Below are positions 3,776 to 19,129 of a stretch of 26,852 nucleotides of DNA, piece after piece. The position numbers were made by a program, and so were the translations under genes. The DNA is from Gemmatimonadota bacterium. Its GTDB lineage: Bacteria; Gemmatimonadota; Gemmatimonadetes; Gemmatimonadales; GWC2-71-9. Below the pieces are notes generated by a model. That model was not told the DNA's origin, ran no database searches, and saw only the letters and a list, made by a program, of their open reading frames with translations. The DNA lies in contig QHTZ01000100.1 in NCBI GenBank assembly GCA_003221005.1, forward strand, positions 1 to 26,852, given 5' to 3'. The stretch's first letter is position 1; the number at the start of each line of letters is the position of its first letter.

Positions 3776-3826
3776 CACATGTCCCATGCGTCCTCGGGGC
3801 TCCCGCACAGGCGGGGCGAATGTCAC
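3772..3826. promoter_or_regulatory. Two degenerate GGGAC-N4-GTCCC boxes upstream of the polysaccharide operon
   Basis: ATGAC-acat-GTCCC at 3772-3785 and GGGGC-gaat-GTCAC at 3813-3826. Confidence 0.4.
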
Positions 3827-3920
3827 GCACCAATTCGAGGCGGGCCGATGGCCGTCCTTTCCAGCGCACGGCACCTGGGCAAGTCGTGCGTTTCACGCCG
3901 CGTTCGCCGGAGGTGGAGGG

Positions 3921-5246
3921 CTGAGCACCCTGACGCCGTCCGCCCCTGGTATGGACATCGAGGACGTCGTGCGCCGGATCCTCTTCGCTTACTGGCCGCT
4001 CATCGTCCTGTTGGTCGGCATCGGCATCGCGGCGCCTGGCGCCTACCACCTGAATGACGAAACGACCTATACGGCATCTGTGCGCTTCGTCATCGACGCG
4101 CCCGACCCCCAGGCGGTCAACGAGTCGACCGCCGTCGCCGACACCGCGCGGTCGATCGTTACGAGCCCGAGCCACGTCGCCGTCGCGCTCACGACGGCCG
4201 GCGTCACCAAGGACCCGGTGAGGTTCGCGAGCCGCAACATCGAGCTCCAGCCGCTGGGTTCGTCCGGCGTCCTCGTGCTCAAGGTCAAGGACACCAACCC
4301 GAGGGCCGCCGCCGCGATCGCCAACCTGCTCGCCGCCGACGCGATCGCGACCAGGATCGAGATCAGCCGGTCGCAGGCGCAGTCCATGGTGGCCGCGCTC
4401 ACCGCGCAGATCTCGGACCTCGACGCACGCATCGCCGCGCTCGACGCGCAGACAGCCAACTTTCGCGCCATCCCGGTCGACGAGCTGAACGGCCTGTACG
4501 CCGAGCGGGCGACCCTGGCCCAGGAGAGGCTCACGCTCGAGTCCGAGCGGCTGCGGATGAGCTCATCCCTGGCGCTGCGACCCCAGGGCGGCGTCGTCGA
4601 TGCGGCGGACGCGCCCACGGTGCCCGACGCCTCGAGAGCGCCGGTGGACATGGCGCTGGGAGGCCTCGGTGGGCTGGTTCTCGGAGTCCTGGTCGCTGCC
4701 CTACTCGCGACCTTCCGGCCGCGGATCAGCGGCAAGCGCAGCCTGCAGGCGGCCCTCTCGGCTCCGGTCCTCGGAGACGCGAGCGAGTCGGAAGCCGTCG
4801 GTGGGGCCAAGCTGACGACGAAGATCCAGCTCGCCGCCAAGCGCGCCGGCGTGACCCGGCTGCAGCTTGCGCCCCTGGGCCGCGGCGAACAGTCGGACGC
4901 GGTGACCAGGCTGCTGGCCGAGCGCATGTCGCTCGACACGGGTCTCGCCGAGACCACGGCCCCCGGCCACGGTCAGGCGAAGAAGGGTAACGACAAGCCC
5001 CTCGTCGTGAAGCGGCTCGATCTCTCGTTCCCGAGCAGGAACGGCGACTTCGCCCATACCGGTCTGCTGCTGGTCGTGCCCAATACGCTCGACAAGAAGG
5101 CTCTGGCCAGCGGCGCTGACCTCGTTGAGCTAACTGGGTGGCCGGTGGCCGGCATTGTGACTTACGAGGAAGACCAGGGCGACCGTTCGGCGTGGAAGGC
5201 GTCGGTTGCATATGTCTCGCGGAGGCTGCCGTGGCGCTCGCGATAG
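3921..5246 (+). CDS. Polysaccharide co-polymerase / chain-length determinant (Wzz/Wzc-like) with a degenerate C-terminal kinase domain
   Basis: N-terminal MDIEDVVRRILFAYWPLIVLL TM, YTASVRFVI, AAAIANLLA, coiled coil, VVDAADAP, second TM, then ALSAPVLG. Start is CTG 3921 (GGAGG at 3909-3913) or ATG 3951. Confidence 0.85.
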   Translation: MSTLTPSAPGMDIEDVVRRILFAYWPLIVLLVGIGIAAPGAYHLNDETTYTASVRFVIDAPDPQAVNESTAVADTARSIVTSPSHVAVALTTAGVTKDPVRFASRNIELQPLGSSGVLVLKVKDTNPRAAAAIANLLAADAIATRIEISRSQAQSMVAALTAQISDLDARIAALDAQTANFRAIPVDELNGLYAERATLAQERLTLESERLRMSSSLALRPQGGVVDAADAPTVPDASRAPVDMALGGLGGLVLGVLVAALLATFRPRISGKRSLQAALSAPVLGDASESEAVGGAKLTTKIQLAAKRAGVTRLQLAPLGRGEQSDAVTRLLAERMSLDTGLAETTAPGHGQAKKGNDKPLVVKRLDLSFPSRNGDFAHTGLLLVVPNTLDKKALASGADLVELTGWPVAGIVTYEEDQGDRSAWKASVAYVSRRLPWRSR

Positions 5247-6433
5247 AGACCGAGCAGCCCATCCCGTTCGCGCGCACTGTGATCACGGCGAGGGCGCGCC
5301 AGGCAGCCTCGCGTGTCATGGCTTCGGGCTGGGTGACGACGGGCCCAGAGGTGGTCGCCTTCGAGAAGGACTTTGCGCAGTGGGTCGGCGCGCAGCATGC
5401 GGTCGGGGTGGCCTCATGCACCGCCGCGATCGAGATTTCGCTACGCGCGCTGGAGCTGGCGCCGGGTTCACGCGTGCTCACGTCGACGATCACCTTCTGC
5501 GGCGCGATCCACGCGATCATCCACGCGGGGCACATTCCGGTTCTGGCGGACGTCGATCCGGTGACGCTGATGCCGAATGCTGACACCATCGCCGCCGCGC
5601 TCGGGCGAGGGGTCGATGCGATGGTCGTGACGCACTACGGCGGTCATGGCGCACCGGTGATGGAGCTGGCTGCGGCTGCTCGACTGCCGCTCTCGCGAGT
5701 GGTGGAGGACGCCGCGCATGCGCTGGGTACGACGATTGGCGCGAGGCGGGTCGGCAGCATCTCCGGCGCGACGTGCTTCAGCTTCTACGCGACCAAGAAC
5801 CTGCCAATAGGTGAGGGTGGAATGATCACGACAGACGACGCGAGGATTGCGTCGCTGTCGAGAACGCTGCGGATCCACGGCATGAGCGGCGACGCGTGGA
5901 AGCGCTACATGCCGGGCGCGAGCTGGCGCTACGACGTGACCGAAGACGGGATCAAGGCCAACATGACCGACGTCCAGGCGGCGATCGGGCGCGTTCACCT
6001 CAAGTCCCTCGCCTCGTGGCAGCGGCGCCGAGAAGAGCTCGCCGCCCACTACGACACCGGCCTGTCGTTCGTCCGGGGCATCGTCCCTCCACCGCATCCC
6101 GCAGAGGGAAGGCATGCATGGCACCTCTACGTGATCAAGGTCAAGCCGGAGTTCGGCGTCACGCGGGACAAGCTGATCTCCGCGCTGACGGCGCAGGGGA
6201 TCCACTGCTCGGTGCACTTCATCCCGAACCACCTGCAGCCCTACTTCCGCAGGTTCATCGCTCGTGGTTCCGACTTCTCCGCTGCCGACGCTGCGTTCAG
6301 GGAAATCGTTTCGCTGCCGTTCTATCACTCGCTCACGACGAGGGAGATTGACCGCGTCTGCGCGGCGATCGCCGAGATCGGAGCGTTCAGTCGTGTCACG
6401 ACCACGACGCCGACCCCGGCATTCAGGTGGTGA
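5231..6433 (+). CDS. DegT/DnrJ/EryC1/StrS PLP-dependent sugar aminotransferase
   Basis: SGWVTTGPEVVAFE, SCTAA, VVEDAAHA, FSFYATKNL (PLP lysine), GEGGM, AWHLY, SLP. GTG at 5231 follows GGAGG at 5221-5225. Confidence 0.95.
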   Translation: MALAIETEQPIPFARTVITARARQAASRVMASGWVTTGPEVVAFEKDFAQWVGAQHAVGVASCTAAIEISLRALELAPGSRVLTSTITFCGAIHAIIHAGHIPVLADVDPVTLMPNADTIAAALGRGVDAMVVTHYGGHGAPVMELAAAARLPLSRVVEDAAHALGTTIGARRVGSISGATCFSFYATKNLPIGEGGMITTDDARIASLSRTLRIHGMSGDAWKRYMPGASWRYDVTEDGIKANMTDVQAAIGRVHLKSLASWQRRREELAAHYDTGLSFVRGIVPPPHPAEGRHAWHLYVIKVKPEFGVTRDKLISALTAQGIHCSVHFIPNHLQPYFRRFIARGSDFSAADAAFREIVSLPFYHSLTTREIDRVCAAIAEIGAFSRVTTTTPTPAFRW

Positions 6434-6434
6434 G

Positions 6435-8015
6435 TTGAGCACGCTCCAGGAGATTGGAGACGCGGCGGTCGTCAATGGCGATGCCAACGGCCACGGCACC
6501 AACGGCCACGCCAAAACGAACGGCAACGGTCGCAACGGCAATGGCGCAAACGGCCACGCCGGGGCGCTCACGTGCCTGGTGGTCGGTGCCGGCAAGGCAG
6601 GGCGCATCATCGCGCGCGACCTGAGAAACCTGCCCGAGTTCGGGCTCCGGCCGATCGGGTACCTCGACGACGACCCAAAGCGCCAAATGGTGGCCGGCCT
6701 GCCCGTCCTCGGCACGCTCGGCGACCTGGCGGAAGTCTGCCGGCAGCGGCACGTCGAGGTGGTCGTCATCGCCATCCCCTCGCTGCCGTCGACCGCGATC
6801 CGGCGCCTTGCCGAGAGCGCGGCCGAGGCGGGCACGCATGTCCGCTACCTGCCTTCGTTCGTCGCCGCGCTCGAGCGTGAGACCCTGATCCACGAGCTGC
6901 GCCACATGCGCATCGCGAGCTTGCTCGGCAGGCAGGAGATGCATGTGGTCCGCACCGACTCGCAAAGCGTCGTGGCGGGCAAGCGCGTGCTGGTGACCGG
7001 CGCCGGCGGCTCGATCGGCAGCGAGCTGTGCCGGCAGATCAAGGGTTTTGGCCCGTCGGCGCTCTATCTGCTCGACCACGACGAGTCGAACCTGCATCGC
7101 GTGCAGATGCAGTTGGAAGGGAGGGCGCTGCTCGACACCGACGACTTGATCATCGCCGACATCCGCGATGCCGGCCGGATCCACCAGATCTTCAGAGCGG
7201 TGCGGCCCGAGGTTGTGTTCCATGCCGCCGCGCACAAGCACCTGCCGCTGCTCGAGAGGCATCCCGCCGAAGGCGTGAAGTCCAACGTCCTTGGCACCAA
7301 GACGCTCGTCGGTGCAGCGCTCGAGGTTGGGGTGGAGAGGTTCATCCTCATCTCGACCGACAAGGCGGCCGACCCGGTCTCGATTCTCGGCGCCACCAAG
7401 CGGCTGGCCGAGCTGATCGTGCAGTCGCGGGCCGGCGGCACGACGCGTTTCGCCTCCGTGCGGTTCGGCAATGTTCTCGGCAGCCGGGGCTCGTTCCTCA
7501 CGGTGCTGTCAGAGCAGATCGAGAAGGGCGAAGAGATCACAGTCACGCACCCCGAGGTCATGCGGTTCTTCATGACCGTCGAAGAGGCGGTTGGCCTCGT
7601 CATCGAGGCGGCCAGCATGGCAGAGGCGGGGGAGACCTTCGTTCTCGACATGGGCGAGCCCGTGCGCATCGTCGACCTGGTTCATAGCTACGCGAGCCAG
7701 ATGCACGTCGACGCGCGCAAGCTGCAGATCCGTTTCACCGGCTTGCGACAGGGAGAGAAGCTGAGCGAAGACCTCTTCAGCAAATCGGAAGAGCGCCGGC
7801 CGACCGCGCATCCGAAGATCAGCGCGGTCTTTCCCGGTGCGCTGCCACCCCATTTCGCCGACCGGCTCGACGAACTCATCTTCGCAGCCTCCGCTAACAG
7901 GCCGCCGCACGAGATCAAGCGTTACCTCGCACGCGCGCTCCCGGACTACAGCCCTCCGGGCGACGCGCCGGTCGAAAACGGCAGCCTTCAGGGCGTCTAT
8001 CCGGACGACTTCTGA
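6435..8015 (+). CDS. Nucleoside-diphosphate-sugar 4,6-dehydratase (PglF/CapD/WbpM-like) lacking the N-terminal membrane domain
   Basis: VVGAGKAG..GYLDDDP domain, then VLVTGAGGSIGSELCRQI, FHAAAHKHLP, ISTDKA, GATKR, VRFGNVLGSRGS, RFFMTVEEA, LDMGEPV, GLRQGEKLSE. TTG at 6435 lies one base after the upstream TGA. Confidence 0.93.
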   Translation: MSTLQEIGDAAVVNGDANGHGTNGHAKTNGNGRNGNGANGHAGALTCLVVGAGKAGRIIARDLRNLPEFGLRPIGYLDDDPKRQMVAGLPVLGTLGDLAEVCRQRHVEVVVIAIPSLPSTAIRRLAESAAEAGTHVRYLPSFVAALERETLIHELRHMRIASLLGRQEMHVVRTDSQSVVAGKRVLVTGAGGSIGSELCRQIKGFGPSALYLLDHDESNLHRVQMQLEGRALLDTDDLIIADIRDAGRIHQIFRAVRPEVVFHAAAHKHLPLLERHPAEGVKSNVLGTKTLVGAALEVGVERFILISTDKAADPVSILGATKRLAELIVQSRAGGTTRFASVRFGNVLGSRGSFLTVLSEQIEKGEEITVTHPEVMRFFMTVEEAVGLVIEAASMAEAGETFVLDMGEPVRIVDLVHSYASQMHVDARKLQIRFTGLRQGEKLSEDLFSKSEERRPTAHPKISAVFPGALPPHFADRLDELIFAASANRPPHEIKRYLARALPDYSPPGDAPVENGSLQGVYPDDF

Positions 8016-8017
8016 TC

Positions 8018-9208
8018 ATGTCGCCGGCGGGCGTGCCGATCAACGTTGCCGTCGTGGTCACCCGCTTCATTGCCGGAGCCGGTGGAGTCGCGCTGCGCGG
8101 CGCGCTGGCGCTGGAGTCTGACCGGTTCCACACCACGGTGATAGCGGCCGAAGGCGGCAACCTGCTCGAGGACGCCGCTACGGGTGGCCTGTCGGTCATC
8201 CCCCTCCGCCACATGCGGCCGGACATCGCTCCGCGCGCCGACCTCGCGGTGCTGCGCGAAGTCTCCGAGCACCTCGAGGCCGGACGTTACGACGTGGTGC
8301 ACACGCACAGCGCAAAGGCGGGCATGGTCGGCCGCGTCGCGGCGCGCTGGAACCGGGTGCCGCTAATCGTGCACACGTTTCACGGATTCCCGTTTCACGC
8401 TTACCAGTCGCGCGCGCGCCGGTCGTCGTACATCGCGATCGAGCGGTGGCTTGGCCGCATCACCGATCGCTTCCTGGCCGTTGGTGCGGCAGTGGCGGCG
8501 GACGCGGTGCGGCTCGGCATTGCGCCGCCTGAGCGCATCCGGACGATCGGAAGCGCGGTCGATCCGGTCGAGCCTCGGACCGCTTCATCACGTGCCGAGG
8601 CGCGACGCCTTCTGGGTGTTCCACAGGACGCAAGGGTTGCAGGCACCGTCGGTCGCCTGGACTTCCAGAAGGCGCCGCTGGATACGGTCAAGGCATTCGC
8701 GCTTCTCGACCGCGACGTCCATTTCGTTTGGGTCGGAGGCGGTCCGATGCTCGGCGAGGTCCGTCGTGAGGTCGAGGGCCGCGGGCTCCAGGAGCGCTTC
8801 CACCTGATCGGAGAGCGGCGCGACGTGGCGCAGCTGCTGCCCGGCATCGACGTCTTTGCGATGGCCAGTCTCTACGAGGGACTGCCCTGCTCGGTCGTCG
8901 AGGCGATGATGTGTGGCGTCCCGGTGGTCGCGACCGCGGTCAACGCGGTACCGGAGGTCGTTGTGCCGGGTCGCACCGGGCTGCTCGTCGCGCCGCGAAG
9001 GCCGCGCGACCTCGCCGCGGCCATCGGCCATCTGCTCGACAACCCGGACCGCGCCGGCGCGCTTGCGGCCGCCGCCCGCTCGAACCTCGGCGACCGCTTC
9101 GACGTCGATGTGCTGGCGCACGATCTGCGGGAGACCTACCTGTCGGCGCTCGGCAGCCGCGACCGCAGTGCTGCGGCGGCGACCACGCAGCTGGCGCAGA
9201 CGGCATGA
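8018..9208 (+). CDS. Glycosyltransferase family 4 (GT-B)
   Basis: DVVHTHSAKAG, HTFHG, VGRLDFQK, SLYEGLPCSVVEAM (E-x7-E), PVVAT, TGLLV. Confidence 0.95.
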   Translation: MSPAGVPINVAVVVTRFIAGAGGVALRGALALESDRFHTTVIAAEGGNLLEDAATGGLSVIPLRHMRPDIAPRADLAVLREVSEHLEAGRYDVVHTHSAKAGMVGRVAARWNRVPLIVHTFHGFPFHAYQSRARRSSYIAIERWLGRITDRFLAVGAAVAADAVRLGIAPPERIRTIGSAVDPVEPRTASSRAEARRLLGVPQDARVAGTVGRLDFQKAPLDTVKAFALLDRDVHFVWVGGGPMLGEVRREVEGRGLQERFHLIGERRDVAQLLPGIDVFAMASLYEGLPCSVVEAMMCGVPVVATAVNAVPEVVVPGRTGLLVAPRRPRDLAAAIGHLLDNPDRAGALAAAARSNLGDRFDVDVLAHDLRETYLSALGSRDRSAAAATTQLAQTA

Positions 9209-10179
9209 GAAGCCTCCGGCTCGAGACCGCAGGCGAGGTGGTCGCCATCGAGACGGGTCTCCCGTGGACAGGCCGCCTGCTCGAGGAGGCGGCCGATGGC
9301 ACGCTTGGGTCGAGCTCGACCCAGCCGACCATTTCGATCAAAGTCGAGGCGGAGCGCGCGCCGTTCCCGACCGCCGGCTTCTCGGTGCTCACGCGAGGCG
9401 CGTGGAGCCGGGCGGGGGACGTCGTCGTCGAAGACGTTTGCGGAACCGGTCTCGACCTTCGCCTGGTCGTTGGGACCGACATCCCGAAGTTCACGTTTCG
9501 CTGGCGGCCGCGTCCGCGGCGCCGGCTCGAGGGTGCGCTCCTGCCGTCGCGCTTCCACCTTCTCGTCCGTGCCGCCCTCGTGCAGTACCCCGTGATCTGG
9601 TGGGCGTCGGTCCAGGGGAGGGCGCCCCTACACGCGGTCGCTTGCACCTTCGGCGAGGCGGTCGCGCTGCTTGCCGGGCCGGGAGGGGTCGGCAAGTCGA
9701 CGCTGCTCAAGGCCGAGTTGGAGGACGGAGGGTCGGCGACCAGCGACAACCTCTGCGTCGGCGACGGCCGCGCCGTCTGGGGTCTGGTCGAACCGATGAG
9801 GATCGAAGGGGCCGGTGGCCGGAAGATGCCGCATGGCCGAGCTGAGACGCCGCTCACAGGGCGGGTTTCCCAGCTGGTGCCGGACCGCATCATCGTCGTG
9901 CGACGCGGCGAGGGTGACGAGGCCCGGCTGCGGCCGTGCGACGCGGAGACCGCGTCGAGGTCTTTGGTCAGCGGCACTTACATGGCAGGGGAGCTGCGCC
10001 GTTTCTGGGGGTTCGCGGCAACGCTTGCCGCCGGCACCGGCGTGGGCCCCTCCCATCCGCCCGTCGTCGAAATCGCTCGCAGCTTCGCGACGCGCGTGCC
10101 CTGCTACGAGCTCGACCTCGCACGACGGCCTGGATCGCGTCTTGCGCAAATCGTCAAACCGATGGAGGCAACTGCATGA
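9205..10179 (+). CDS. HPr kinase/phosphorylase-like P-loop protein
   Basis: ATGA overlap with the GT4 stop. LHAVAC...VALLAGPGGVGKST (Walker A at 9676-9702) followed by SDN matches the LHA / GxxGxGKST / DD layout of HprK-related kinases. Confidence 0.75.
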   Translation: MRSLRLETAGEVVAIETGLPWTGRLLEEAADGTLGSSSTQPTISIKVEAERAPFPTAGFSVLTRGAWSRAGDVVVEDVCGTGLDLRLVVGTDIPKFTFRWRPRPRRRLEGALLPSRFHLLVRAALVQYPVIWWASVQGRAPLHAVACTFGEAVALLAGPGGVGKSTLLKAELEDGGSATSDNLCVGDGRAVWGLVEPMRIEGAGGRKMPHGRAETPLTGRVSQLVPDRIIVVRRGEGDEARLRPCDAETASRSLVSGTYMAGELRRFWGFAATLAAGTGVGPSHPPVVEIARSFATRVPCYELDLARRPGSRLAQIVKPMEATA

Positions 10180-11750
10180 ACCTGAAAGTCATCGCGGCCG
10201 GTCCCGAGAGTCCGGCCCATCTAGAGGATCCGAATCGATTGGCGGAGCTCGACTCGCCGGCTACGGGCGCGACATCGAATGGTCACGATGCCGCGCACGA
10301 CGAGGACGACCACCACCACGGCGTCGATCGCAACGTCCACCGGGCGCAGTTTCAGGACGCCCGGATTTTCCAGAGCAAGGATTACCGCGCGAAGGAAGAG
10401 ACGCTGGCGGTGCTGGCAGAGGGAATTCGCGACACGGACCTGGTGACGGCTCCGGTCGTGCTCCCGGACTTCTATCACAAGGCACTTCTGGAGATGCCGT
10501 CGAGCATCGCGGTCGCTACGCGAAACTCAATCCGGCCGACGCTCACCAGCGCCGCTGTGAACTGCGGGATGGCGCTGATCACCTTCGATGCCGAGCGCCC
10601 GAGCCGCGAGCGCATCGCCGACTTCTACGAGTCGGTTCGCAAGACCTACCCGTTTCCGCCGACCCTGCGCCCCGACATCACGTACGCCGAAGTCCTGGAG
10701 AGCGCAACGCGCGGCGCCGAGTTTGCGGTCGGCCGGTGGGGGCTCGACCCGAACGACCTGCTGGCGATCGAGGAGGGCGGCAAGCTCGACCTCGAGTCCT
10801 TCGGCGGCAAGGCCCGGCTCAAGGAGGAGGTGCCCTGGCTGATGTTGCAGCTGAGCCGCCTCCGGTTTGGGACGATCGGGCCGAGCACCCACTTCGTGGA
10901 GCTGCAGGAGGTCGAGGAGGTCCTCGATGACGACGTGGCTGCGAAGCTGGGCCTGCACAAGGGCCAGATCACGCTGCAGTTCCACGCGGGCGGGGGAACA
11001 CTCACAGGCGCGATCGGGGCGCTATACGGTCCGCGGCGGGCGGGGAGCCAGCTGCTGAAGACGATCATGAGCGCGCAGCGGCCGCTGCACCATCTTGCCG
11101 GCGCGCGGTCTTTTCGAGAGCTGCGCGACCGCTACACGCTGTACTTCGGCAACGACTGCCCGCCCGTGCCGCGAGACAGCCCAGAGGGCGAGCGCCTGAT
11201 GGTGTCGAACGCCGCGGCGATGAACTACGGATTCGCGTTCAGGCTCAAGACGTACTCGGACTTGCGCGAGCTCGCCGCAAAGTATTTCGGCGCCGCCAGC
11301 CACCTCGTCGTGGACTCACCTCACAACTCGATCTACGAAGAGGAGATCGACGGCGAGACCGCCATCGTGCACCGGCACAACACGTCGCGCGCCTATCCGG
11401 CCTCGCGAATGACCGGACATCCGATCTTCAGCCAGACGGGGCAGCCGGTGCTCGTTCCTGGCACCAACCGGACGTGCTCATACCTCTGCGTGGGCGCGGA
11501 AGGATCCAGGGAGGGGCTCTACTCGGCCTGTCACGGGACCGGCAGCATCATCGACGACTTCGTGGCCCGCGGACTGTCGCATGAAGACCCGGCCGGCCAC
11601 ACGACGCTTCGGTTCAGCTACAAGGAGCCGGAGCCAAAGGTCGTAAAGCACCTGGACAATCGCGGCGTCGACGAGGGCATCGCGATCCTCGCCGGCAACA
11701 ACCTGGTGAAGCCCGTGGTCCGGCTGCGGCCGTTTGCGGTCCTCAACTAA
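10176..11750 (+). CDS. Divergent RtcB-family protein (524 aa)
   Basis: ATGA overlap and GGAGG RBS. Colinear RtcB motifs: VLPD, VNCGM, FGTIGPSTHFVELQ, FHAGG, AAMNYGFAFR, VVDSPHN, VHRH, GQPVLVPGT..SY, SACHGTG, PVVRLRP. Confidence 0.88.
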   Translation: MNLKVIAAGPESPAHLEDPNRLAELDSPATGATSNGHDAAHDEDDHHHGVDRNVHRAQFQDARIFQSKDYRAKEETLAVLAEGIRDTDLVTAPVVLPDFYHKALLEMPSSIAVATRNSIRPTLTSAAVNCGMALITFDAERPSRERIADFYESVRKTYPFPPTLRPDITYAEVLESATRGAEFAVGRWGLDPNDLLAIEEGGKLDLESFGGKARLKEEVPWLMLQLSRLRFGTIGPSTHFVELQEVEEVLDDDVAAKLGLHKGQITLQFHAGGGTLTGAIGALYGPRRAGSQLLKTIMSAQRPLHHLAGARSFRELRDRYTLYFGNDCPPVPRDSPEGERLMVSNAAAMNYGFAFRLKTYSDLRELAAKYFGAASHLVVDSPHNSIYEEEIDGETAIVHRHNTSRAYPASRMTGHPIFSQTGQPVLVPGTNRTCSYLCVGAEGSREGLYSACHGTGSIIDDFVARGLSHEDPAGHTTLRFSYKEPEPKVVKHLDNRGVDEGIAILAGNNLVKPVVRLRPFAVLN

Positions 11751-12172
11751 TGCCAGGTTGGTGGCGGGTCGCCGTACCGTCCGAGGCGACCGAGCTCGAG
11801 ATCCCTGGCAATGGTGGAAGCCGGCGCGACGCAGTGGACCGCCTGCGCTCGCTGGATCGGGGTGCGCTCGTCGCTCTGCGCGACGCGCGGCCCGCGTCCT
11901 GGTTGCGGACGCGCTCCTTCATCGCCAGCGCCGGCCTCCGCCTGGAGAAGGAGTTCGTCGCGATCCCGGGCTTCGACAGCCCGGGATTTCTGGTCGAAGC
12001 CAACCGCCTCGCCTTCCGGCACTTCTTCACGCGCGTCCTTTATGTGCCGACGGGTGACTGGCGCGGTGTGGTGGGCGCCGGCCTGGCCGCTCGGCTGGCG
12101 GCGGGCTGGCTCGGCTGGCGGATCGCTGCCGCGCTCGCACCGGCCCGGATCGTGATCGCGAGGAAGGTCTGA
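11750..12172 (+). CDS. Hypothetical protein (140 aa)
   Basis: TAATG overlap with the RtcB-like stop; its own stop abuts the next ATG, so it fills the operon gap exactly. No catalytic motif recognised. Confidence 0.75.
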   Translation: MPGWWRVAVPSEATELEIPGNGGSRRDAVDRLRSLDRGALVALRDARPASWLRTRSFIASAGLRLEKEFVAIPGFDSPGFLVEANRLAFRHFFTRVLYVPTGDWRGVVGAGLAARLAAGWLGWRIAAALAPARIVIARKV

Positions 12173-13207
12173 ATGGCTGTGGCCGGCGCTCCCGCCCCGG
12201 CGCTCCAGAGCGTGAGCGACCTTCTGGCCGATCGCGGCCGCGGCGTCGTCGTGTCCGGCATTTCGAAGGATCCGAACGGCAAGGTGACACTTGTCCTGGT
12301 CGGCGACGACGGCCAACCGGCGGTCGTCGTGAAGATCGCGCCGACTGCGAGTGCGGAGGCCGCGCTCGAGGCCGAGGCGGCGGTCCTCGAGGGGCTCGAG
12401 CGGACGCGCCTGGGCGTGCTCGCGCCGTCCGTGCCCCAGGTCCTTGGCTGGGCGCAGCACGGGGGTCGGTTGGCGCTGGTCCTGACGGGGCTGCCCGGTC
12501 GCAGCATGCTCACCGGCTACCACACCTGGCGTCACACCGCACGGCCGGCGACGGTGGCCGGCGACTTCAACGCGGTCAGCGCGTGGCTGGCAGCGTTTCA
12601 GTCGGCGACCTCCGGAGGTGCGATCAGCCTCTCGGACCAGACGATCGCCGCCACGCTGCAGGGCCGTTTCGCGCACCTCCCGCTGCTCTCACGGGCGCTT
12701 GAGCTGCTCGATGCGGTGCAGGAGAGGCTGCGCGTTTTCGAGGTTCCCGCCTGTACGGTCCACGGCGATCTATGGCCGGGAAACATCCTCGAGGCACACG
12801 GCGTCGTCAGCGGCGTCGTCGACTGGGAAGCCGGCCGGCTCCTGGCCTCTCCCACAAGCGACCGGGTGCGCTACGCGCTGACTTACGCGCTGTATCTCGA
12901 CAAGCACACGGCCGCGGGCTCTGGGGTCGCCGGTCACCGCGGGCTGCGGGCCGACCGGTGGGGCGCCGGATTCCGCCATCTGCTCGCCGGCTCGACGTGG
13001 TTCGGGGATGCCGTGGCGGGGTTCATCGCCTCGGCCCTGGAGCGGCTTGACGCCGACCCGCACCTGTGGCGGGTGGTGTTGCTCGAGGGCCTGGCGGGGA
13101 TCGCGGCCACGGCCGACGATCTGGCTTTTGCGACGCATCACCTAGAGGTTTTCGCCGAATTGGCGCCGGCAGTCATAGCTGCCGGAAAGGGGAGATCGGA
13201 ACCATGA
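12173..13207 (+). CDS. Aminoglycoside-phosphotransferase/choline-kinase-like (ELK fold) phosphotransferase
   Basis: VVVKIA lysine, helix-C EAEAAVL, Brenner motif HGDLWPGN (starting 12761), metal-binding VVDWE. Confidence 0.9.
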   Translation: MAVAGAPAPALQSVSDLLADRGRGVVVSGISKDPNGKVTLVLVGDDGQPAVVVKIAPTASAEAALEAEAAVLEGLERTRLGVLAPSVPQVLGWAQHGGRLALVLTGLPGRSMLTGYHTWRHTARPATVAGDFNAVSAWLAAFQSATSGGAISLSDQTIAATLQGRFAHLPLLSRALELLDAVQERLRVFEVPACTVHGDLWPGNILEAHGVVSGVVDWEAGRLLASPTSDRVRYALTYALYLDKHTAAGSGVAGHRGLRADRWGAGFRHLLAGSTWFGDAVAGFIASALERLDADPHLWRVVLLEGLAGIAATADDLAFATHHLEVFAELAPAVIAAGKGRSEP

Positions 13208-13386
13208 ACACGAGCCGGCAGGGCTCGACCGAGCTGCCATTCAACGTCCGCCAGAAGCTCCTGCGCAGGTCGCGTCGCCGTAGGACCCTGCTGTACCTCC
13301 GCAACGACACCGTATGGCTCTTCCTACTGATCACCATGGCGATCCTGGTCGCCACCCAGTTGATCGGAGCCTTGGGCCGCGCTTAG
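13204..13386 (+). CDS. Small membrane protein (60 aa): Arg-rich segment followed by one TM helix
   Basis: ATGA overlap with the upstream stop, AAGGGGAG RBS; MNTSRQ..LLRRSRRRRTLL..VWLFLLITMAILVATQLIGAL. Confidence 0.7.
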   Translation: MNTSRQGSTELPFNVRQKLLRRSRRRRTLLYLRNDTVWLFLLITMAILVATQLIGALGRA

Positions 13387-13395
13387 GGGGATGGA

Positions 13396-14724
13396 TTGAG
13401 CACCGCCGGGGCGGCGATCGGCGGGTACTTGGGGGCGCCGCGGTCGCCGTTCGACACCGCCCGGATTCCGCAGTGGCGTGCCGCGGCGCTTGCGCTCGCC
13501 GCGCTCGCGATCGGCACGCTGCCATTCCTTCGGCCGGCGGGCCCGGGGAACACATCGCCCACCGACGTCGCCATGGTCGCCACGATTGCGGCGACCGCGG
13601 TCCTCGTGTATGTCTCGCGGGAACGGCTGCGCGCTCCGTTCGCCATCTCCTCCGCGTTGATGGTGATCGCAGGTTGCGTGTCGGGGGTGGTCGGGCCTGC
13701 GCTGCGGCAGGCGCTGGTCTCGGTCGGCTACCCGCAGGACAGCCTCATCGCGGTCATCCAGGACCTCTACCTGCTGTTCTGGTGCCTGACGCTGGTAAAC
13801 CTCGTCCGCTCGGCCTCCGACCTGCGCGTGGTCCTCACCGCCTGGATTTATGGCGCGGCGTTCTGGGCCGCCCTGCTGGTGACAGGAGCCGTGCTGGGGA
13901 TCCGCGCCCTGTCGGGCATCGAGGTTGGCAACGGTGGTCGCGCCGAGGGCACCTTCGGCGACCCCAACATGGCGGCGAACTTCTTCGCGCTGTCGATCTT
14001 CGTTGTGTGGGCTTCGGCGTCACCGGGGAACCGATGGTTGCGAGCAGCAATCGTGGTCTTGCTGCTGAGCGCGATGGTGATGACGGGCTCCAACGGAGCG
14101 TTCCTCAATCTCGGTATCGGAGTTGCGTTCGTAATCCTCGCCACCATCCGCAAGCGCCTTGGCGGCATCGCCCTGGTGATCGCGCTGTGCTTCGGGCTCA
14201 TGACCGCCGTTGCGGTCGTCAGTTACGTCGACTTCGGAGCGATCCAGGAAGCTGCGCGAACTAGCGGCCAACCGATATTGCGCGACTGGATTGGCCGCAG
14301 CGATTCAAGCGCATACCAGCGGATTGTGATCTTGCAGGAGGCCGGGGAGATCCTCCAGAAGGCCGGGCCGCTCGGCACTGGGCCAAACGCCACCAAGCCG
14401 CTGCTCACCGACACGCTGGCCCCGTACGCCCATCAAGCGCACGACGACTACGTGGCACTGGTTGTCGAGCGTGGGGTCCTCGGTGGAGTCGCGCTTTTCG
14501 TGCTCATCTGCGCGATCTGGTTCAGGTCGTCGCAGGCGCTGGGGGGCCGCATGCGCGACGCGTTCCAACGCGTCGTCCCGAGGCGCGAACCGCTGATCGG
14601 GGCCCTGCTAGGGCTGGCGGCCGCGGCCTCCTACTACGAGGTGATCCATTTCCGGCACGTGTGGACTCTGCTGGCGGTCCTCGCGATCCTGCAGATCAGG
14701 GGTAGGGAGCGGGTGGCCGCATGA
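13396..14724 (+). CDS. Wzy polymerase / O-antigen ligase family membrane protein
   Basis: Many TM helices; RAEGTFGDPN, TGSNGA, PLGTGP, AHDDYVALVVERGVLG (Wzy_C signature). TTG start after GGGGGATGGA. Confidence 0.88.
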   Translation: MSTAGAAIGGYLGAPRSPFDTARIPQWRAAALALAALAIGTLPFLRPAGPGNTSPTDVAMVATIAATAVLVYVSRERLRAPFAISSALMVIAGCVSGVVGPALRQALVSVGYPQDSLIAVIQDLYLLFWCLTLVNLVRSASDLRVVLTAWIYGAAFWAALLVTGAVLGIRALSGIEVGNGGRAEGTFGDPNMAANFFALSIFVVWASASPGNRWLRAAIVVLLLSAMVMTGSNGAFLNLGIGVAFVILATIRKRLGGIALVIALCFGLMTAVAVVSYVDFGAIQEAARTSGQPILRDWIGRSDSSAYQRIVILQEAGEILQKAGPLGTGPNATKPLLTDTLAPYAHQAHDDYVALVVERGVLGGVALFVLICAIWFRSSQALGGRMRDAFQRVVPRREPLIGALLGLAAAASYYEVIHFRHVWTLLAVLAILQIRGRERVAA

Positions 14725-16730
14725 GGTCGCTGCGCAAGCTCAGCCGCAGCGCATTGAGCGGAAACCTCGCCGCCCTCGGTGGCGCCCTGGTGGCCCTGTC
14801 GATCGCGACCCTGGTCGTGGCCCGGGCCGGCGGGCCGGCGGCCGTCGGCGACTACGCGCTGCTCCGCATCATGCCGTGGCTGCTGGCTGTGATCGTTTCC
14901 GGCGGCCTGGCTTCAGCGTCCGCGTACTTTCTGGCCGGGCCGACTCGGGATGACCCCCAGGTCCGGCCGACGCTCATCGCGATGGCGGTCGCGGCTGCGG
15001 TCGCTTCACTCCTCATCTGGGTCGTGGCGTCACCCGCCATCAGGGCCGTCTTCTTCCACGACCTCACCACGGCGCTCGTCGCCTGGGCCGGCCTGAAGGC
15101 GACAAGCCGGCTCTTCGTGATCACCGCAAAGGCCGCTTCGCAAGGCACCGGCGACCTGCCCGGCAGCAACTGGCTCATCTTCCTCGAGGAGCTCATGTTC
15201 CTGCCCGCCTATGCCGTCGCCTTGATGTTCGGGCTGCGCGGAGGTGCCGGGATCATCGCCGCCCTCATCCTGTCCGACGTCGCCACCGGCATGGTGGGCT
15301 GGAGGCGGCTGGTTCGGCGCGGCTACCTGGCCGGTTCGTCAAAGCCGTCGCCGGTGCTGGCGCGTCGCATCTACGCGTTCGGCATGCGCGGCCAGGTCGG
15401 CAGCATTATGACGCTGGTCAACCTCCGGCTCGACTTCATGATCATCGCGCTCCTGGCGGGACCGGTGGTCCTCGGTGTGTACGCGGTCGCCTCGAAATTC
15501 GCGGAGCTGCTCCGCCTCCTGCCGACTGCCTTCAACTGGGTGTTCTATCCGTCCTTTGCGAAGCAGGCTCCAGTGGAGGCGTGGAGGCGCGCCGCCTGGC
15601 TCATGCCCCGCGCTGCCGCATGCACCGCGTTCGCTGCGATCCCCCTGGCCTCGGTCGCTGGACCCGTGCTGCCTCTGCTGTACGGCTCCGACTTTGCGGG
15701 CGCGGTGCTGCCGAGCCAGCTGCTCCTGGTGGGGCTCACGGTCGAGGGCGCGGCCGGGGTCGTCACCGCATATCTCTTCGGCCGCGGCCGCCCTGGTTTG
15801 AACTCGCTCGCCACGGCGGGCGGAGTGGTCGTCACTGTGGCGCTGGACCTGCTGCTCATTCCAAGGCTGAGCTTGCTGGGAGGCGCCGTGGCTTCCAGCG
15901 TTGCCTACCTGGCCACGACGTCGCTGTTGGTCACCTGCTTCATAGCTGTTCGGCCGTCGGCGCCGGCGCCGGCCGCGATTGACGCCGGCCCCGCAGCCCC
16001 GACCGGGACTTTGCGGCGGCTCATCGACCTCGCGGTCGCCGGCATTGCGCTGGTCATCGCGGGACCGTTGCTGCTGGTCGTGTGGCTCGGCTCGAGGATT
16101 TCGACCGGCGCGTCGGGCATATATCGGCAGGAGCGGGTGGGGGAGGGCGGTGTGCCGTTCACGATGCTCAAGATCCGGAGCATGCGTCCTGGGGGCGCTG
16201 GACCTCAGGTCACCGTCGAAAGCGATCCCCGTGTCACTCGGTTCGGTCGGCTGCTGCGGGCGACGAGCATCGACGAGCTGCCACAGCTCATCAACATCAT
16301 CCGGGGTGACATGACGCTGGTCGGGGCCAGGCCGGAGACGGTGGATCTCGCCCGGCGGTACGCTCCGGAGCTGCACACGGTGTTCCGACACCGCCCCGGC
16401 CTCACGGGTCCGGCGCAACTCTTCTTCCGCTGGAGTGACGCCCTCGACAGGGCAGACGACGTGGAGTTGGCCTACCTGCAGGACCAGGTGCCGCTCCGCG
16501 TGGCCATGGACCTCGACTACCTCGAGAGACCGACCGTGGGACGGACGCTTGGCCTGATCGCAACCACCGCAGCCAACGTCCTCCATCTGGGACGCCGAGT
16601 CAATGTCCTACCGCCGTCGGCACGCCCAGCCTGTCGCCCGGCGGCTGGCGGCATGGACGACCTCAGTGCAGGGGAAGCGAGTTCTCCAGTTCCAGCTGAC
16701 GGACTTCGTCGGGCCGCGACTCGAGGCTGA
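14721..16730 (+). CDS. Fusion of a Wzx-type flippase and a priming phosphoglycosyl transferase (Bac_transf)
   Basis: N-terminal ~410 aa MOP flippase (GPAAVGDYALL, NLRLDFMII..GVYAVASKFAE, LYGSDFAGA, LLIPRLSLLGGAVASSVAY). After a Pro/Ala linker: RRLIDL..YRQERVG..FTMLKIRSM..DPRVTRFGRLLRATSIDELPQL..GDMTLVGARPE..RPGLTGPAQ. Confidence 0.9.
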   Translation: MRSLRKLSRSALSGNLAALGGALVALSIATLVVARAGGPAAVGDYALLRIMPWLLAVIVSGGLASASAYFLAGPTRDDPQVRPTLIAMAVAAAVASLLIWVVASPAIRAVFFHDLTTALVAWAGLKATSRLFVITAKAASQGTGDLPGSNWLIFLEELMFLPAYAVALMFGLRGGAGIIAALILSDVATGMVGWRRLVRRGYLAGSSKPSPVLARRIYAFGMRGQVGSIMTLVNLRLDFMIIALLAGPVVLGVYAVASKFAELLRLLPTAFNWVFYPSFAKQAPVEAWRRAAWLMPRAAACTAFAAIPLASVAGPVLPLLYGSDFAGAVLPSQLLLVGLTVEGAAGVVTAYLFGRGRPGLNSLATAGGVVVTVALDLLLIPRLSLLGGAVASSVAYLATTSLLVTCFIAVRPSAPAPAAIDAGPAAPTGTLRRLIDLAVAGIALVIAGPLLLVVWLGSRISTGASGIYRQERVGEGGVPFTMLKIRSMRPGGAGPQVTVESDPRVTRFGRLLRATSIDELPQLINIIRGDMTLVGARPETVDLARRYAPELHTVFRHRPGLTGPAQLFFRWSDALDRADDVELAYLQDQVPLRVAMDLDYLERPTVGRTLGLIATTAANVLHLGRRVNVLPPSARPACRPAAGGMDDLSAGEASSPVPADGLRRAATRG

Positions 16731-17505
16731 GGCTGCCGTACTCCCAGGAGAAGACGAGGTATCCGCTGAGCGCGGACTTCCTCCAGTGTTGGAACTCCTC
16801 GTGCAGCTCGCTTGGGGTGGGTAGGCGGTAGTAGTCGTCCTGGAAGGCCTGGATGATGGCCCAGTAGTCGGTGATGCCCGCGCCCTGAATCGCGGCCACC
16901 GCCTCGTCGATCCGGCTGAAGTCGCATTGCGCGTCCACCCGGCGGCACGGATACACGTCAAAGCCGAGGATGTCCGTCGTCCCCTTCCACTGGGCGTATG
17001 GGAAGGCCACTCCCGCGTCGGAAGCCGAGATCACGGTGAAGGTGGGATGGACGGGATCGATCTGGTGCACCAACGCCGTTCTCGCCTTGAACATCGCGGG
17101 CGCTTTGGGACATTTGCTTGCGAGCGGCTCGTCGCCCAGGAAGTAGGCCAGTACCGCGGGGCTCGAGGCGATGGGAACCACGTGGGAGCGAATCCAGGCG
17201 TCGTCGTGCTCCCAGGCGCACGACGCGTTCCGCCATGCGCCGAGCCACACGAAGGCCTTGACGCCGTGCGCCGTCAGCTCGCCGAGATCGTCCGGGTAAG
17301 GATTTGCGTCGAAGGTGTTGAAGCCGGCGTTGGCTTGCAGTGTGAAGCCGTTGCTGCTGGTGTCGTGGCCATACACGCCACGGATCGCGCTCGCGTCGCC
17401 GGGCCAAGGCGCGGGTGTCGTCGTGGCCGAGCTCCCTCCGAACGTGCATGAGGAGACCGCGGTGAGGAGGGCGACGGCGAGTAGCGAAAGACGAACGCGG
17501 TTCAG
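16663..17505 (-). CDS. Lipoprotein with a putative TIM-barrel glycoside-hydrolase-like domain
   Basis: Probable CTG start at 17505 with GGAGG 8 nt upstream gives signal peptide MNRVRLSLLAVALLTAVSS-C. Motifs AYFLGDEP, DILGFDVYP, WAIIQAF, GYLVFSW. Confidence 0.75.
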   Translation of the reverse strand: MNRVRLSLLAVALLTAVSSCTFGGSSATTTPAPWPGDASAIRGVYGHDTSSNGFTLQANAGFNTFDANPYPDDLGELTAHGVKAFVWLGAWRNASCAWEHDDAWIRSHVVPIASSPAVLAYFLGDEPLASKCPKAPAMFKARTALVHQIDPVHPTFTVISASDAGVAFPYAQWKGTTDILGFDVYPCRRVDAQCDFSRIDEAVAAIQGAGITDYWAIIQAFQDDYYRLPTPSELHEEFQHWRKSALSGYLVFSWEYGSLSLESRPDEVRQLELENSLPLH

Positions 17506-17506
17506 C

Positions 17507-19129
17507 TCAGAAACCTCCGAGGTGTGGATCCTCGCGATTTCCGTCGGCGTGGGCGGCGGCGAGGACGCGACGGCTGGGCAACGGGTCGCACCGGGCATTT
17601 AAGCAGGTGCCCGTCTTCAGGTCGAACTCGAGATTGTGGCCGAGGCAGCGCAGGACGTCGTTCTCGAGCATGACGGCACCGATCGCGAGGTCTTCGCCCG
17701 CGTGGGGGCAATAGCGGCCGATCTTGTAGACCCCACCCGGGGCCGTGACTTCGAGCGTCTCGCCGCTGTCGCGGCCGCGCTCGTGGCGCTCGATCGCCGA
17801 CAGCGCCTCCGGCTCGGCGTGCTTCAGGAGGCCGATGAGGTAGTCGTTGTAGATGTCGGGGTCGCGCCAGCATCCGATGCGCAGGGACAGGAACAGGTCC
17901 TCCCACGCGATCTCACCGAAGATCACGGGGGCGAGCCAGCGTGAATCGACCTTGAACCGGTACTGGACCTCCGACGCCGAGCCGCCGAGGTCGACCTTGA
18001 CACCTTGCGGCCGGAAGTCGACGTCCCAGCGACCCTCAACCTGGCCCGTGATCTCGAAGCGAACCGTCATGTCGATCCGTTCTCGGAAATATGGGCTCAT
18101 CTCTCCAAGCCTGTGGAAATGCTCGACGAATGCGTCAGCAAGCTCGGGTCCTGGCTCCGCATACCCCCTCTCGGTCTCGATGATCGATCGCTGCCGGGCC
18201 TTCGCGTACCACTCGATGTATTCGGCCATATGGTCGTACGAGAAATCACGCCAGTGCGGGTCGCGTTCCAGGTGCCGGCTCAGCATGTCGTAGCGATCCC
18301 CGGGCATCCAGTTGGCGACCTGGACGTGGGGGGCCCTGGACTCGAGATAGGCGGCCGCCTGGGACTGGTTGGGAAAGATGCCGTTGGGGTCGAGGAGCCA
18401 TCGGTTGAATTGTTGGAGCTCGGGGTCGAGGAAGCACATCGGTCCCGCGAAAGGCAATGCAACCTCCGGCGCCGCCAGCTTGACCAGGCGGCTGACGAGC
18501 TTGAACTTGCCCTCTCGCTTGGCTGCGCTGATGCGCAGCATCTCCTCTTCGCCGTACTCGTAACGGATGGGGTGCCACGATGCGCCCGACATCTGCACCG
18601 CCATCAGGTCGATCTTGCCACCGCACTCGATCGCCGCCCGACGCGCCTGGCCGATGGTGAGCCTGGCGTCGTTGCAATGCAGGAATGAGGCCCCGCCGGC
18701 ATACAACAGGACAGCCGAGTCGTGGCACATCGGGGACTGCTCAGGGATGAAGCAAACCCAGTCCCCGCGCTCGTTGAGCTGGAACTTCTGCCACGCGTCG
18801 AGCTCGACGACGTTACGGGCGCCGAGGCGGGCGAGGCGATCCCGCAGATTCGGTGAGGGATAGCGATTGATCAGCAGCTTCGCGTTCAGGGGCAGGTGCG
18901 AGAGCACGTCCGCATCCATGTGGTCGAGGTGCTCGTGTGACAGTGTCGCGTAGTCGACGTCGAGGATTTGCGACTGGTCCAGGTGGCCGTTGCTCGGGAA
19001 CTGGTGCCACGAGCCCTGGAAGGCGCCGCGCTCCGAAAGCCAGCAGTCCATGATCATGCGGAGGTCGACGCCGTCGACCCGCATGCCGGCATGGCCGAGA
19101 AATGTCAGCTGAAGTGAATCCGCAGGCAC
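17507..19129 (-). CDS. NamH/CMP-Neu5Ac-hydroxylase-like protein: metallo-beta-lactamase fold plus C-terminal Rieske [2Fe-2S] domain
   Basis: GHAG, SWHQFPSN, SHEHLDH, DSA..NDAR, SGASWHP, PFAGPMCFLDPEL, IFPNQ, FLSLR..WR..YNDYL, Rieske CPH..CLGH. The motif order follows mycobacterial NamH (Rv3818) as I recall it. Confidence 0.85.
   Translation of the reverse strand: MPADSLQLTFLGHAGMRVDGVDLRMIMDCWLSERGAFQGSWHQFPSNGHLDQSQILDVDYATLSHEHLDHMDADVLSHLPLNAKLLINRYPSPNLRDRLARLGARNVVELDAWQKFQLNERGDWVCFIPEQSPMCHDSAVLLYAGGASFLHCNDARLTIGQARRAAIECGGKIDLMAVQMSGASWHPIRYEYGEEEMLRISAAKREGKFKLVSRLVKLAAPEVALPFAGPMCFLDPELQQFNRWLLDPNGIFPNQSQAAAYLESRAPHVQVANWMPGDRYDMLSRHLERDPHWRDFSYDHMAEYIEWYAKARQRSIIETERGYAEPGPELADAFVEHFHRLGEMSPYFRERIDMTVRFEITGQVEGRWDVDFRPQGVKVDLGGSASEVQYRFKVDSRWLAPVIFGEIAWEDLFLSLRIGCWRDPDIYNDYLIGLLKHAEPEALSAIERHERGRDSGETLEVTAPGGVYKIGRYCPHAGEDLAIGAVMLENDVLRCLGHNLEFDLKTGTCLNARCDPLPSRRVLAAAHADGNREDPHLGGF

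Follow-up and report, generated by a model that had tools for sequence, protein, structure and literature searches.

The window analyzed here, a stretch of 26,852 nucleotides (nt), is an entire contig (QHTZ01000100.1; contig C9 of its bin) from a Gemmatimonadota bacterium (assembly GCA_003221005.1). It carries a gene for a divergent relative of the RNA ligase RtcB, here called the RtcB-like protein, which is set within a run of putative surface-glycan genes:

10176..11750, + strand, divergent RtcB-fold enzyme of 524 amino acids (Pfam RtcB, AlphaFold model, Foldseek and residue conservation)

From its residues, modeled fold and gene context, we consider it moderately likely that the product is an RtcB-fold nucleotidyl transferase that is catalytically competent and has been co-opted from RNA repair for a Wzx/Wzy surface-glycan pathway, where it would place a nucleoside monophosphate (NMP) onto a phosphomonoester made by a kinase.

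The RtcB-like open reading frame (ORF) starts at an ATG that overlaps the preceding gene's stop codon (ATGA), with GGAGG 8 nt upstream. Its product matched the Pfam RtcB family (PF01139) with an E value of 7e-41. The match scored 141.3 bits (cut-off, 27) and spanned residues 92-523 of the protein, aligned to positions 14-424 of the 426-position profile. The curated NCBIfam RtcB models all scored far below their cut-offs (NF007153, 68.3 bits against 407; TIGR03073, 43.1 against 271.8; NF038162, 81.5 against 1150), and identity to solved or canonical RtcBs was approximately 23-27%. An AlphaFold model made with 40 relatives as input had a predicted local distance difference test score (pLDDT) of 84.9 and a predicted template modeling score (pTM) of 0.84. 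When this model was searched against the PDB with Foldseek, the 13 matches listed of 16 counted at E<=0.001 were all RtcB/RTCB or TTHA1785, with E values of 5e-29 to 4e-24 for the top matches and template modeling (TM) scores of 0.57-0.76 among the 13. The profile and structure matches agree with an earlier reading made from the DNA letters (the sequence-only reading), which had taken the ORF for an RtcB homologue, and by fold and PF01139 we assign the predicted product to the RtcB superfamily. Its catalytic domain comprises approximately residues 60-524. Residues 1-59 (nt 10176-10352) form a disordered His/Asp-rich extension (..HDAAHDEDDHHHGVDRNVH.., pLDDT <50), which is present only in the closest relatives, of approximately 500-530 amino acids, and is missing from the majority, of 475-490 amino acids. 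This tail may be a metal-gathering device for a metal-dependent enzyme.

Positions were mapped between the RtcB-like protein and the RtcB of Pyrococcus horikoshii (Pho RtcB) by HMMER alignments. The RtcB-like protein retains the equivalents of Pho D65 in the LPD motif (D98), N97 (N129), C98 (C130, nt 10563), H203 (H239, nt 10890), E206 (E242), H234 (H270, nt 10983), H329-N330 (H383-N384, nt 11322) and the nucleophile H404 (H453, nt 11532). Metal site M1 (Pho C98, H234 and H329) is complete, formed by C130, H270 and H383, and metal site M2 (Pho D95, C98 and H203) is incomplete, as the D95 position is occupied by A127. Several motifs around these residues are changed: DINCG reads AVNCG (D95 to A127, nt 10554), GNH reads STH (N202 to T238, nt 10887), HTGSRG reads HAGGGT (R238 to G274), HRKGA reads HRHNT (K351-G352 to H401-N402), PGSMG reads PGTNR, HGAGR reads HGTGS (R408 to S457), and the C-terminal KG has become LN followed by the stop codon (K480 to N524). 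With the exception of N97, all of the retained residues above had been picked out by eye in the sequence-only reading, as had each of the changed motifs; the alignment confirmed both sets, coordinates included, and revealed two further replacements, R190 to L226 and R412 to D461. All six canonical basic positions examined that contact the strands or guanine (R190, R238, K351, R408, R412 and K480) are replaced in the RtcB-like protein; among them, R408, R412 and K351 presumably bind the 3'-phosphate strand or sulfate. Of the two guanine readers, the E206 equivalent (E242) is kept and the K480 equivalent is replaced by Asn.

The sequence-only reading had allowed that these substitutions might be common in proven RNA-ligating RtcBs. 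None was found in the solved or proven RtcBs that we aligned: Pho RtcB, Thermus thermophilus TTHA1785, zebrafish RTCB and the canonical RtcB of the same bin all keep D-INCG, GNH, HxGSRG, HRKG and CHGAGR. Canonical ligases (Pho PH1602, TTHA1785 and human or zebrafish RTCB) share with the RtcB-like protein the same fold (Foldseek E of approximately 1e-28), the same His nucleophile, the M1 site of one Cys and two His residues, and the equivalents of Asn330, Asp65 and Glu206. They differ from it at D95, R238, R190, K351, R408, R412 and K480, all of which are replaced in the RtcB-like protein, and they lack two insertions, of approximately 10 and 20 amino acids, that are specific to the RtcB-like subfamily. 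The RtcB-like gene also differs in being embedded in a glycan operon without an archease, RtcA or PrfH partner.

Published work on Pho RtcB assigns roles to many of the replaced residues. In the available text of PMC9745838, M1 is formed by His234, His329 and Cys98 and M2 by Cys98, Asp95 and His203; the beta and gamma phosphates of GTP are bound at M2, guanine is read by Lys480 at O6 and by Glu206 at N1/N2, and Asn202 touches the alpha-beta bridge of the nucleoside triphosphate (NTP). Excerpts of PMC8051266 describe Asn202 as contacting the 5'-OH nucleophile and Arg238 as binding two phosphates of the 5'-OH strand, with sealing by the Escherichia coli R189A protein being 200-fold slower, and place the next phosphate with Arg190 and Gln194. 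According to the portions of PMC3973293 available, the D65A, D95A, N202A, H203A, F204A, E206A, H404A and K480A proteins were each inactive alone in RNA ligation; archease rescued F204A, E206A and K480A, while D95A regained with archease the guanylylation of an RNA 3'-phosphate but not ligation, and K480A yielded approximately 2-fold more ligation product with ATP. The RtcB-like protein therefore carries natural equivalents of three inactivating substitutions (D95A, N202A and K480A), and the guanylylation by D95A with archease indicates that an RtcB without D95 can still activate a phosphate. Judged from the alignment, the sealing-specific Arg238 is lost and the predicted requirements for forming the His-NMP intermediate and for transferring NMP to a phosphate are kept.

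If the replacements reflected drift in this copy, they should be private to it, as the sequence-only reading had recognized. A word-indexed search recovered 1509 proteins at E<=1e-3 among 8000 candidates scored, and the best 120 of these 1509 relatives were 56-100% identical to the RtcB-like protein and 473-531 amino acids long. Conservation was analyzed in an alignment of 120 sequences, consisting of P0001 and 119 of the best relatives, with P0002, the window's own sequence, left out; identities in this set ranged from 56 to 84%. The equivalents of D65, N97, C98, H203, H234, H329, N330 and H404 were invariant (120/120), and that of E206 was kept in 119. The replacements were fixed as well. 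The R238 position was Gly and the K351-G352 position was His-Asn in every relative, the R190 position was Leu in 111 of the 120, and the R412 position was Asp in 101 and never basic. At the R408 position we found Ser in 93, Thr in 25 and Ala in 2, and the K480 position was the C-terminal residue, being Asn in 103, Ser in 9 and Thr in 8. The D95 position was Ala in 67, Ser in 52 and Gly in 1, and never Asp. The N202 position was split between Thr (68) and Asn (52), so that this replacement alone, as far as the alignment goes, is clade-specific rather than family-wide. Its fixation across a large family places the pattern far above chance. Drift confined to this copy is thus excluded, and the earlier judgment that the substitutions do not represent decay holds; the alignment points to a redesigned site that is kept by purifying selection. 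Most of the relatives named in their source are annotated 'tRNA-splicing ligase RtcB' or 'RNA-splicing ligase RtcB'.

The residues at positions 127 and 238, which line the former M2/triphosphate site, were found to be paired. Ala127 occurred with Thr238 in 67 relatives and Ser127 with Asn238 in 51, leaving 2 exceptions. This putatively compensatory pairing in 118 of the 120 suggests selection on the phosphate-binding site. On a FastTree phylogeny the 127/238 state switched approximately 4 times, and the joint change in 3 of 4 independent pairs was not significant (p = 0.25). The window's own four-member clade has the Ala/Thr state inside a clade of 23 that is otherwise Ser/Asn.

The sequence-only reading had also inferred a systematic loss of Arg and Lys residues. 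This stands for the particular positions described above and fails as a statement about the whole protein: the catalytic domain of the subfamily has a mean net charge of +1.6 and a mean isoelectric point (pI) of 8.0, and Arg228 and Arg230 are invariant (120/120), with position 432 being Arg in 113 and Lys in 6. On these values a global loss of positive charge was rejected; the overall charge is not lowered, and only individual positions have lost basic residues. By alignment, the surroundings of the active site appear to have been rewired with new invariant Arg residues rather than simply stripped.

The RtcB-like gene belongs to a series of genes from 3786 to 16730 that share a strand and are closely spaced or overlap at their junctions, forming an operon of approximately ten genes. 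Besides the RtcB-like gene, it contains the following:

3786..5246, + strand, probable chain-length determinant (Wzz/PCP-like), first gene of the operon (weak NCBIfam match, TIGR03007 at 7e-9, far below cut-off)
5138..6433, + strand, DegT/PglE-type sugar aminotransferase, start uncertain (Pfam DegT_DnrJ_EryC1, 2.9e-101)
6264..8015, + strand, CapD/PglF-type nucleotide-sugar 4,6-dehydratase, start uncertain (Pfam Polysacc_synt_2, 1.3e-100)
8018..9208, + strand, family 4 glycosyltransferase (GT4; Pfam Glycos_transf_1, 1.5e-32, and Glyco_transf_4, 4.9e-21)
9205..10179, + strand, P-loop kinase-like protein of 324 amino acids, with a fold of the phosphoenolpyruvate carboxykinase (PEPCK)/HprK type (model and Foldseek)
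11750..12172, + strand, small ORF of 140 amino acids, conserved by position (locus comparison)
12173..13207, + strand, kinase of the APH/choline-kinase fold (Pfam APH, 1.1e-17)
13396..14724, + strand, membrane protein with a Wzy_C domain, polymerase or ligase (Pfam Wzy_C, 1.2e-12)
14721..16730, + strand, fusion of a MOP/Wzx-type flippase and a polyprenyl-phosphate glycosyl-phosphotransferase (PGT; Pfam Bac_transf, 3.2e-44, Polysacc_synt_3 and Polysacc_synt)

The start of the DegT gene is uncertain because its longest ORF overlaps the preceding gene. With a PGT, a flippase, a Wzy protein, a chain-length protein (a weak match), a GT4 enzyme and sugar-modifying enzymes, the operon is, as annotated by family profiles, a Wzx/Wzy-dependent surface-glycan locus. 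Pfam annotation of the window revealed no archease, RtcA, RtcR or PrfH among the neighbors of the RtcB-like gene, and the window contained no tRNA gene and no Rfam match. Terminator-like sites in the window were not above expectation (3 found against a shuffled mean of 5.4). Outside the operon, the long ORFs at 16663-17598 (- strand), 20729-22597 (+ strand) and 25547-26722 (+ strand) had no Pfam match at E<=1e-3.

Conservation of this gene context was examined by a pattern scan that used one genome per species. The scan gave 335 candidate stretches, 295 of which encoded a relative, and 80 loci were kept. Of these, 62 were from Actinomycetota, including Amycolatopsis, Streptomyces, Terrabacter, Terracoccus, Nonomuraea and Dactylosporangium, and 11 were from Dormibacterota, the remainder being scattered. 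Neighbors were counted by tblastn with the window's genes, within 8 kb of the RtcB-like gene, in the 59 loci that had at least 8 kb on both sides. The P-loop kinase was found in all 59, DegT in 58, GT4 in 55, the flippase/PGT in 55, Wzy in 54, the PCP-like homologue in 53, the APH-fold kinase in 52 and CapD in 51. Apart from one DegT and one GT4 match, every operon-gene match was on the same strand. Unrelated genes of the window served as a comparison and were found less often: the histidine kinase in 0, the response regulator in 1, the metallo-beta-lactamase/Rieske (MBL-Rieske) gene in 9, the ORF at 16663 in 14 and the LuxR-type regulator in 35, in 17 of them on the same strand. Gene order was shuffled between clades (for example, CapD, P-loop kinase, GT4, DegT and then the RtcB-like gene), and the set stayed together. 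This conserved place in a glycan operon gives independent support for a substrate other than RNA. The changed, non-RNA substrate proposed in the sequence-only reading is thus favored by both the fixed replacements and the conserved operon, with the nature of that substrate being our inference.

Two of the conserved partners are kinase-like proteins. The P-loop protein contains a Walker A motif, GPGGVGKST, followed by SDN, and it had no sequence match in Pfam, NCBIfam or the PDB. Its AlphaFold model (pLDDT 94.3) had PEP carboxykinases as the best Foldseek matches (1yvy_B, 2.6e-8), which places it in the PEPCK/HprK fold class. The translation of the APH-fold kinase contains HGDLWPGN and VVDWE, which we take to be catalytic-loop-like motifs, and in a sequence comparison with the PDB it gave only marginal matches, to macrolide phosphotransferases (E of 0.16). 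In 57 loci an APH match followed the RtcB-like gene at a distance below 1.2 kb. In 41 of these a separate ORF of at least 80 amino acids begins where the RtcB-like gene ends; in 15 the longest ORF from that point runs into the kinase, and in 1 there is none. A shortened form of the small domain is fused to the N terminus of the APH kinase in at least three loci, L029 (Amycolatopsis), L045 (Streptomyces) and L049; among the remaining 12 run-in loci, some may be upstream extensions of the kinase frame. The small 140-amino-acid ORF is probably an accessory of the APH-fold kinase. In the window the two (11750-13207) are in the same frame, split by one TGA and then a start codon, and likewise in locus L003. 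The small ORF had no family match in Pfam or NCBIfam, and the ESM Atlas returned clusters of hypothetical proteins and a sub-threshold methyltransferase lead (0.79). We considered it as an archease analogue, as it has the same size and the same place 3' of the RtcB gene, and rejected this idea because it had no Pfam match and an hhalign comparison with the archease of the bin gave a probability of 0.1%.

Natural fusions join the RtcB-like domain directly to proteins of this pathway. In a survey of 150 listed cluster representatives, drawn from an exhaustive HMMER search with 1076 hits at E<=1e-3, P0152 (885 amino acids) consisted of a P-loop kinase and an RtcB-like domain, the kinase part (residues 23-347) matching 36 orthologues by hhalign with a probability of 99.2% and an E value of 7e-20. 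In the same set of representatives, P0189 (996 amino acids) consisted of a Wzx/MOP flippase and an RtcB-like domain. In P0189 the Cys98 position is Asp (..SVNDGMG..) and HRHN reads SRHN, and Asp or Ser also occupies the Cys98 position in P0220, P0229, P0239, P0263 and P0271; by this alignment, some branches may use a different metal site. Among 78 full-length representatives there were many divergent clades with D95 replaced by Ser, Ala or Gly, R238 by Gly and HRKG by HRHN, most of which keep the C-terminal Lys.

A metagenome scan for the HRHN-type clades, queried with an alignment of the more distant 'HRHN' proteins, yielded 80 loci, which a motif script sorted into 68 canonical HRKG, 3 HRHN, one each of HG, NG and QG, and 6 that it left unclassed. 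Four loci of the wider branch, a small sample, were annotated, with L088 left aside because of its short length. The RtcB-like gene adjoins a flippase and a family 1 glycosyltransferase (GT1) in L083, lies between GT4 genes in L084, and has a flippase, GT4 genes and a polysaccharide deacetylase as its neighbors in L086, a metagenome contig of low guanine-plus-cytosine (GC) content. In L086 (5638-7678) the divergent RtcB-like gene, which is short at its C-terminal end (423 amino acids), overlaps the start of a CDP-alcohol phosphatidyltransferase gene and is translationally coupled to it, an arrangement that fits an RtcB-like enzyme making a phospho-alcohol activated with a nucleoside diphosphate (NDP). 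The fourth locus, L085, scored 303 bits, was neither HRKG nor HRHN by the script and had an unrelated context. Within this small sample, L083, L084 and L086 agree with the link to glycans.

The fold, the kept catalytic residues, the fixed replacements at RNA contacts, the conserved operon and the fusions are observed features of this family. Because the residues that hold RNA are lost and two kinases accompany the gene in a glycan operon, RtcB chemistry has probably been re-used here on sugar or lipid phosphates. From these features we infer every chemical step of the following scheme, together with the choice of nucleotide and the nature of the molecule that is phosphorylated. His453 would attack an NTP at the kept Cys130/His270/His383 metal site, giving an enzyme-His-NMP intermediate. 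Retention of Glu242, which reads guanine N1/N2, makes GTP the likely donor, and the loss of Lys480 may relax the choice of base; Pho K480A makes approximately 2-fold more product with ATP. The NMP would then be passed to a phosphomonoester made by the PEPCK/HprK-fold kinase, by the APH-fold kinase with its small partner, or by both; this could be carried by a sugar, a small alcohol or acid, or a lipid-linked repeat unit. The predicted product, R-O-P-P-nucleoside, is the counterpart of RNA(3')pp(5')G. In a third step, either a hydroxyl would displace NMP in the same enzyme, which would then act as a phosphodiester-forming 'glycan ligase', or a partner transferase (GT4 or phosphoglycosyl transferase) would use the NDP-activated product. 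Within this moderately favored family of mechanisms, we divide our expectation about equally between an enzyme that activates and seals and one that activates only. By analogy with Pho D95A, and given the loss of Arg238 and Asn202, we lean toward activation being retained and canonical sealing being altered.

The net chemistry proposed has precedents. In several biosynthetic routes a kinase makes R-O-P, a nucleotidyl transferase converts it to R-O-P-P-nucleoside, and a transferase then forms a phosphodiester or glycosidic bond with release of NMP or NDP; examples are CofC/CofD in F420 synthesis, LicA/LicC/LicD in phosphocholine decoration, AmgK/MurU in sugar salvage and the CDP-glycerol or CDP-ribitol enzymes of teichoic acids. 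The LicA and AmgK routes begin, as may the present one, with an APH-fold kinase. However, the nucleotidyl transferases of these routes have unrelated folds and work by direct attack on the NTP, whereas the proposed RtcB-like route would use a covalent His-NMP enzyme, possibly with sealing in the same active site. GalT (galactose-1-phosphate uridylyltransferase, of the HIT superfamily) does form a covalent His-NMP, and attack by a sugar-1-phosphate then yields an NDP-sugar, but its fold is unrelated and its donor is an NDP-sugar rather than an NTP. Within the RtcB family itself, Myxococcus xanthus RtcB3, known to us from the title of a 2015 study by Maughan and Shuman, reportedly caps the 5'-phosphate ends of DNA and RNA. 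It is a precedent for an RtcB paralogue that moves GMP to a phosphomonoester without sealing, although it acts on nucleic acid, and we compared it by description.

Several points weigh against the proposed transferase. The loss of the M2 ligand D95 could cripple the first step, so that another donor or another chemistry is possible. A shared gene neighborhood shows functional linkage and not mechanism, and the new invariant Arg228, Arg230 and Arg432 could still bind a nucleic-acid backbone. A canonical RtcB (570 bits) is also encoded in the bin, on contig C50, where its gene adjoins that of a true archease (Pfam, 1.1e-23). The argument that the RtcB-like protein is an additional copy next to such a pair applies to this bin alone, and it calls for caution given the outlying composition of the window's contig. 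In the genomes of L003, L006, L004 and L029 (G121-G124) there was a single PF01139 match, and it was divergent (139-147 bits), with no canonical RtcB. These four carriers indicate that the glycan-linked form is independent of a canonical paralogue; equally, as the RtcB-like protein is the sole RtcB member there, redundancy offers no argument against a residual role on RNA.

A first alternative is that the protein is a nucleotidyl transferase with a different acceptor, such as a protein or a glycan hydroxyl, or only a hydrolase that acts on a cyclic sugar phosphate in the manner of a cyclic phosphodiesterase. The available text of PMC3458531 describes a 2',3'-cyclic phosphodiesterase step in canonical RtcB, and the altered M2 site (D95 to Ala or Ser) together with the changed N202 position suggests that the leaving group is handled differently. 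We nevertheless consider this alternative unlikely, as it leaves unexplained the pairing with the P-loop kinase (59/59) and the APH kinase (52/59) and the fusion of kinase and RtcB-like domain. Moreover, the coupling to a CDP-alcohol phosphotransferase in L086 points to NDP-activated phospho-alcohols, the product expected from transfer of NMP to a phosphomonoester.

A second alternative is that the protein is still an enzyme that processes nucleic-acid ends, as a ligase or a capping enzyme like RtcB3, with altered strand recognition, and that its place in a glycan operon reflects co-regulation. The complete nucleotidyl-transfer core and the four carrier genomes without another RtcB are compatible with this, Arg228, Arg230 and Arg/Lys432 could form a different nucleic-acid cleft, and characterized RtcB paralogues vary in their ligation and capping activities, according to the part of PMC10630183 available. 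Against this, R238 and K351 are replaced in all 120 relatives, no relative has a basic residue at the R408, R412 or K480 position and Leu occupies the R190 position in 111, while single changes at D95, N202 and K480 each inactivate Pho RtcB alone in the ligation assays of PMC3973293. The gene has no archease, RtcA, RtcR or PrfH neighbor, the archease of the bin adjoining the canonical copy instead, and its linkage to kinase and glycan genes outlasts the shuffling of gene order across phyla and extends to natural fusions with kinase and flippase. We therefore regard a nucleic-acid substrate as rather improbable. Least probable by far is a non-catalytic scaffold or regulator of a glycan assembly complex (a pseudoenzyme), or a decaying copy: the protein lacks the metal ligand D95 and the base reader K480, and its RtcB profile score is weak beside that of the canonical copy (141 against 570 bits), but pseudoenzymes normally lose the nucleophile or metal ligands, whereas here every other catalytic residue reported is invariant across at least two phyla (E206 in 119/120), the frame is intact, the replacements are fixed, and the 127/238 pairing suggests selection on the phosphate site.

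To our knowledge, the activities known for RtcB are confined to the ligation and capping of nucleic acids. Judged on listings and abstracts, with subscription journals mostly outside coverage, we found no paper linking RtcB to glycan synthesis. The broader proposal, which the sequences leave finely balanced, is that RtcB chemistry operates outside nucleic acids, as a one-enzyme, kinase-fed route to phosphodiester-linked or NDP-activated building blocks of surface glycans, and that it defines a widespread 'HRHN' branch of the superfamily. Were this so, it would define a new class of enzyme in glycan biosynthesis, a covalent-histidine nucleotidyl transferase able to activate and join phosphate-bearing units. 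It would also account for an unannotated cassette of three to four genes in hundreds of genomes of soil Actinomycetota and Dormibacterota, and it would correct the automatic label 'tRNA-splicing ligase RtcB' carried by most of the named relatives. As culturable carriers exist, among them Terrabacter sp. Root85, Amycolatopsis pithecellobii and Streptomyces sp. S.PB5, a role in glycan synthesis can be tested directly.

The window itself is an outlier within its bin. Its tetranucleotide distance from the bin mean ranked 73 of 77 contigs, and its GC content is 67.1%, against 69.1% for the bin. The RtcB-like subfamily was found in none of 120 other sampled genomes of the same phylum, where the best match scored 96 bits against 862 for the window. 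The nearest locus is in a Dormibacterota metagenome-assembled genome, at 76% identity, and it remains syntenic with the window as far as the LuxR-type regulator and MBL-Rieske genes. The outlying composition, the lack of carriers in the sampled phylum and the Dormibacterota affinity together suggest that the contig is either a transferred island or was mis-binned.

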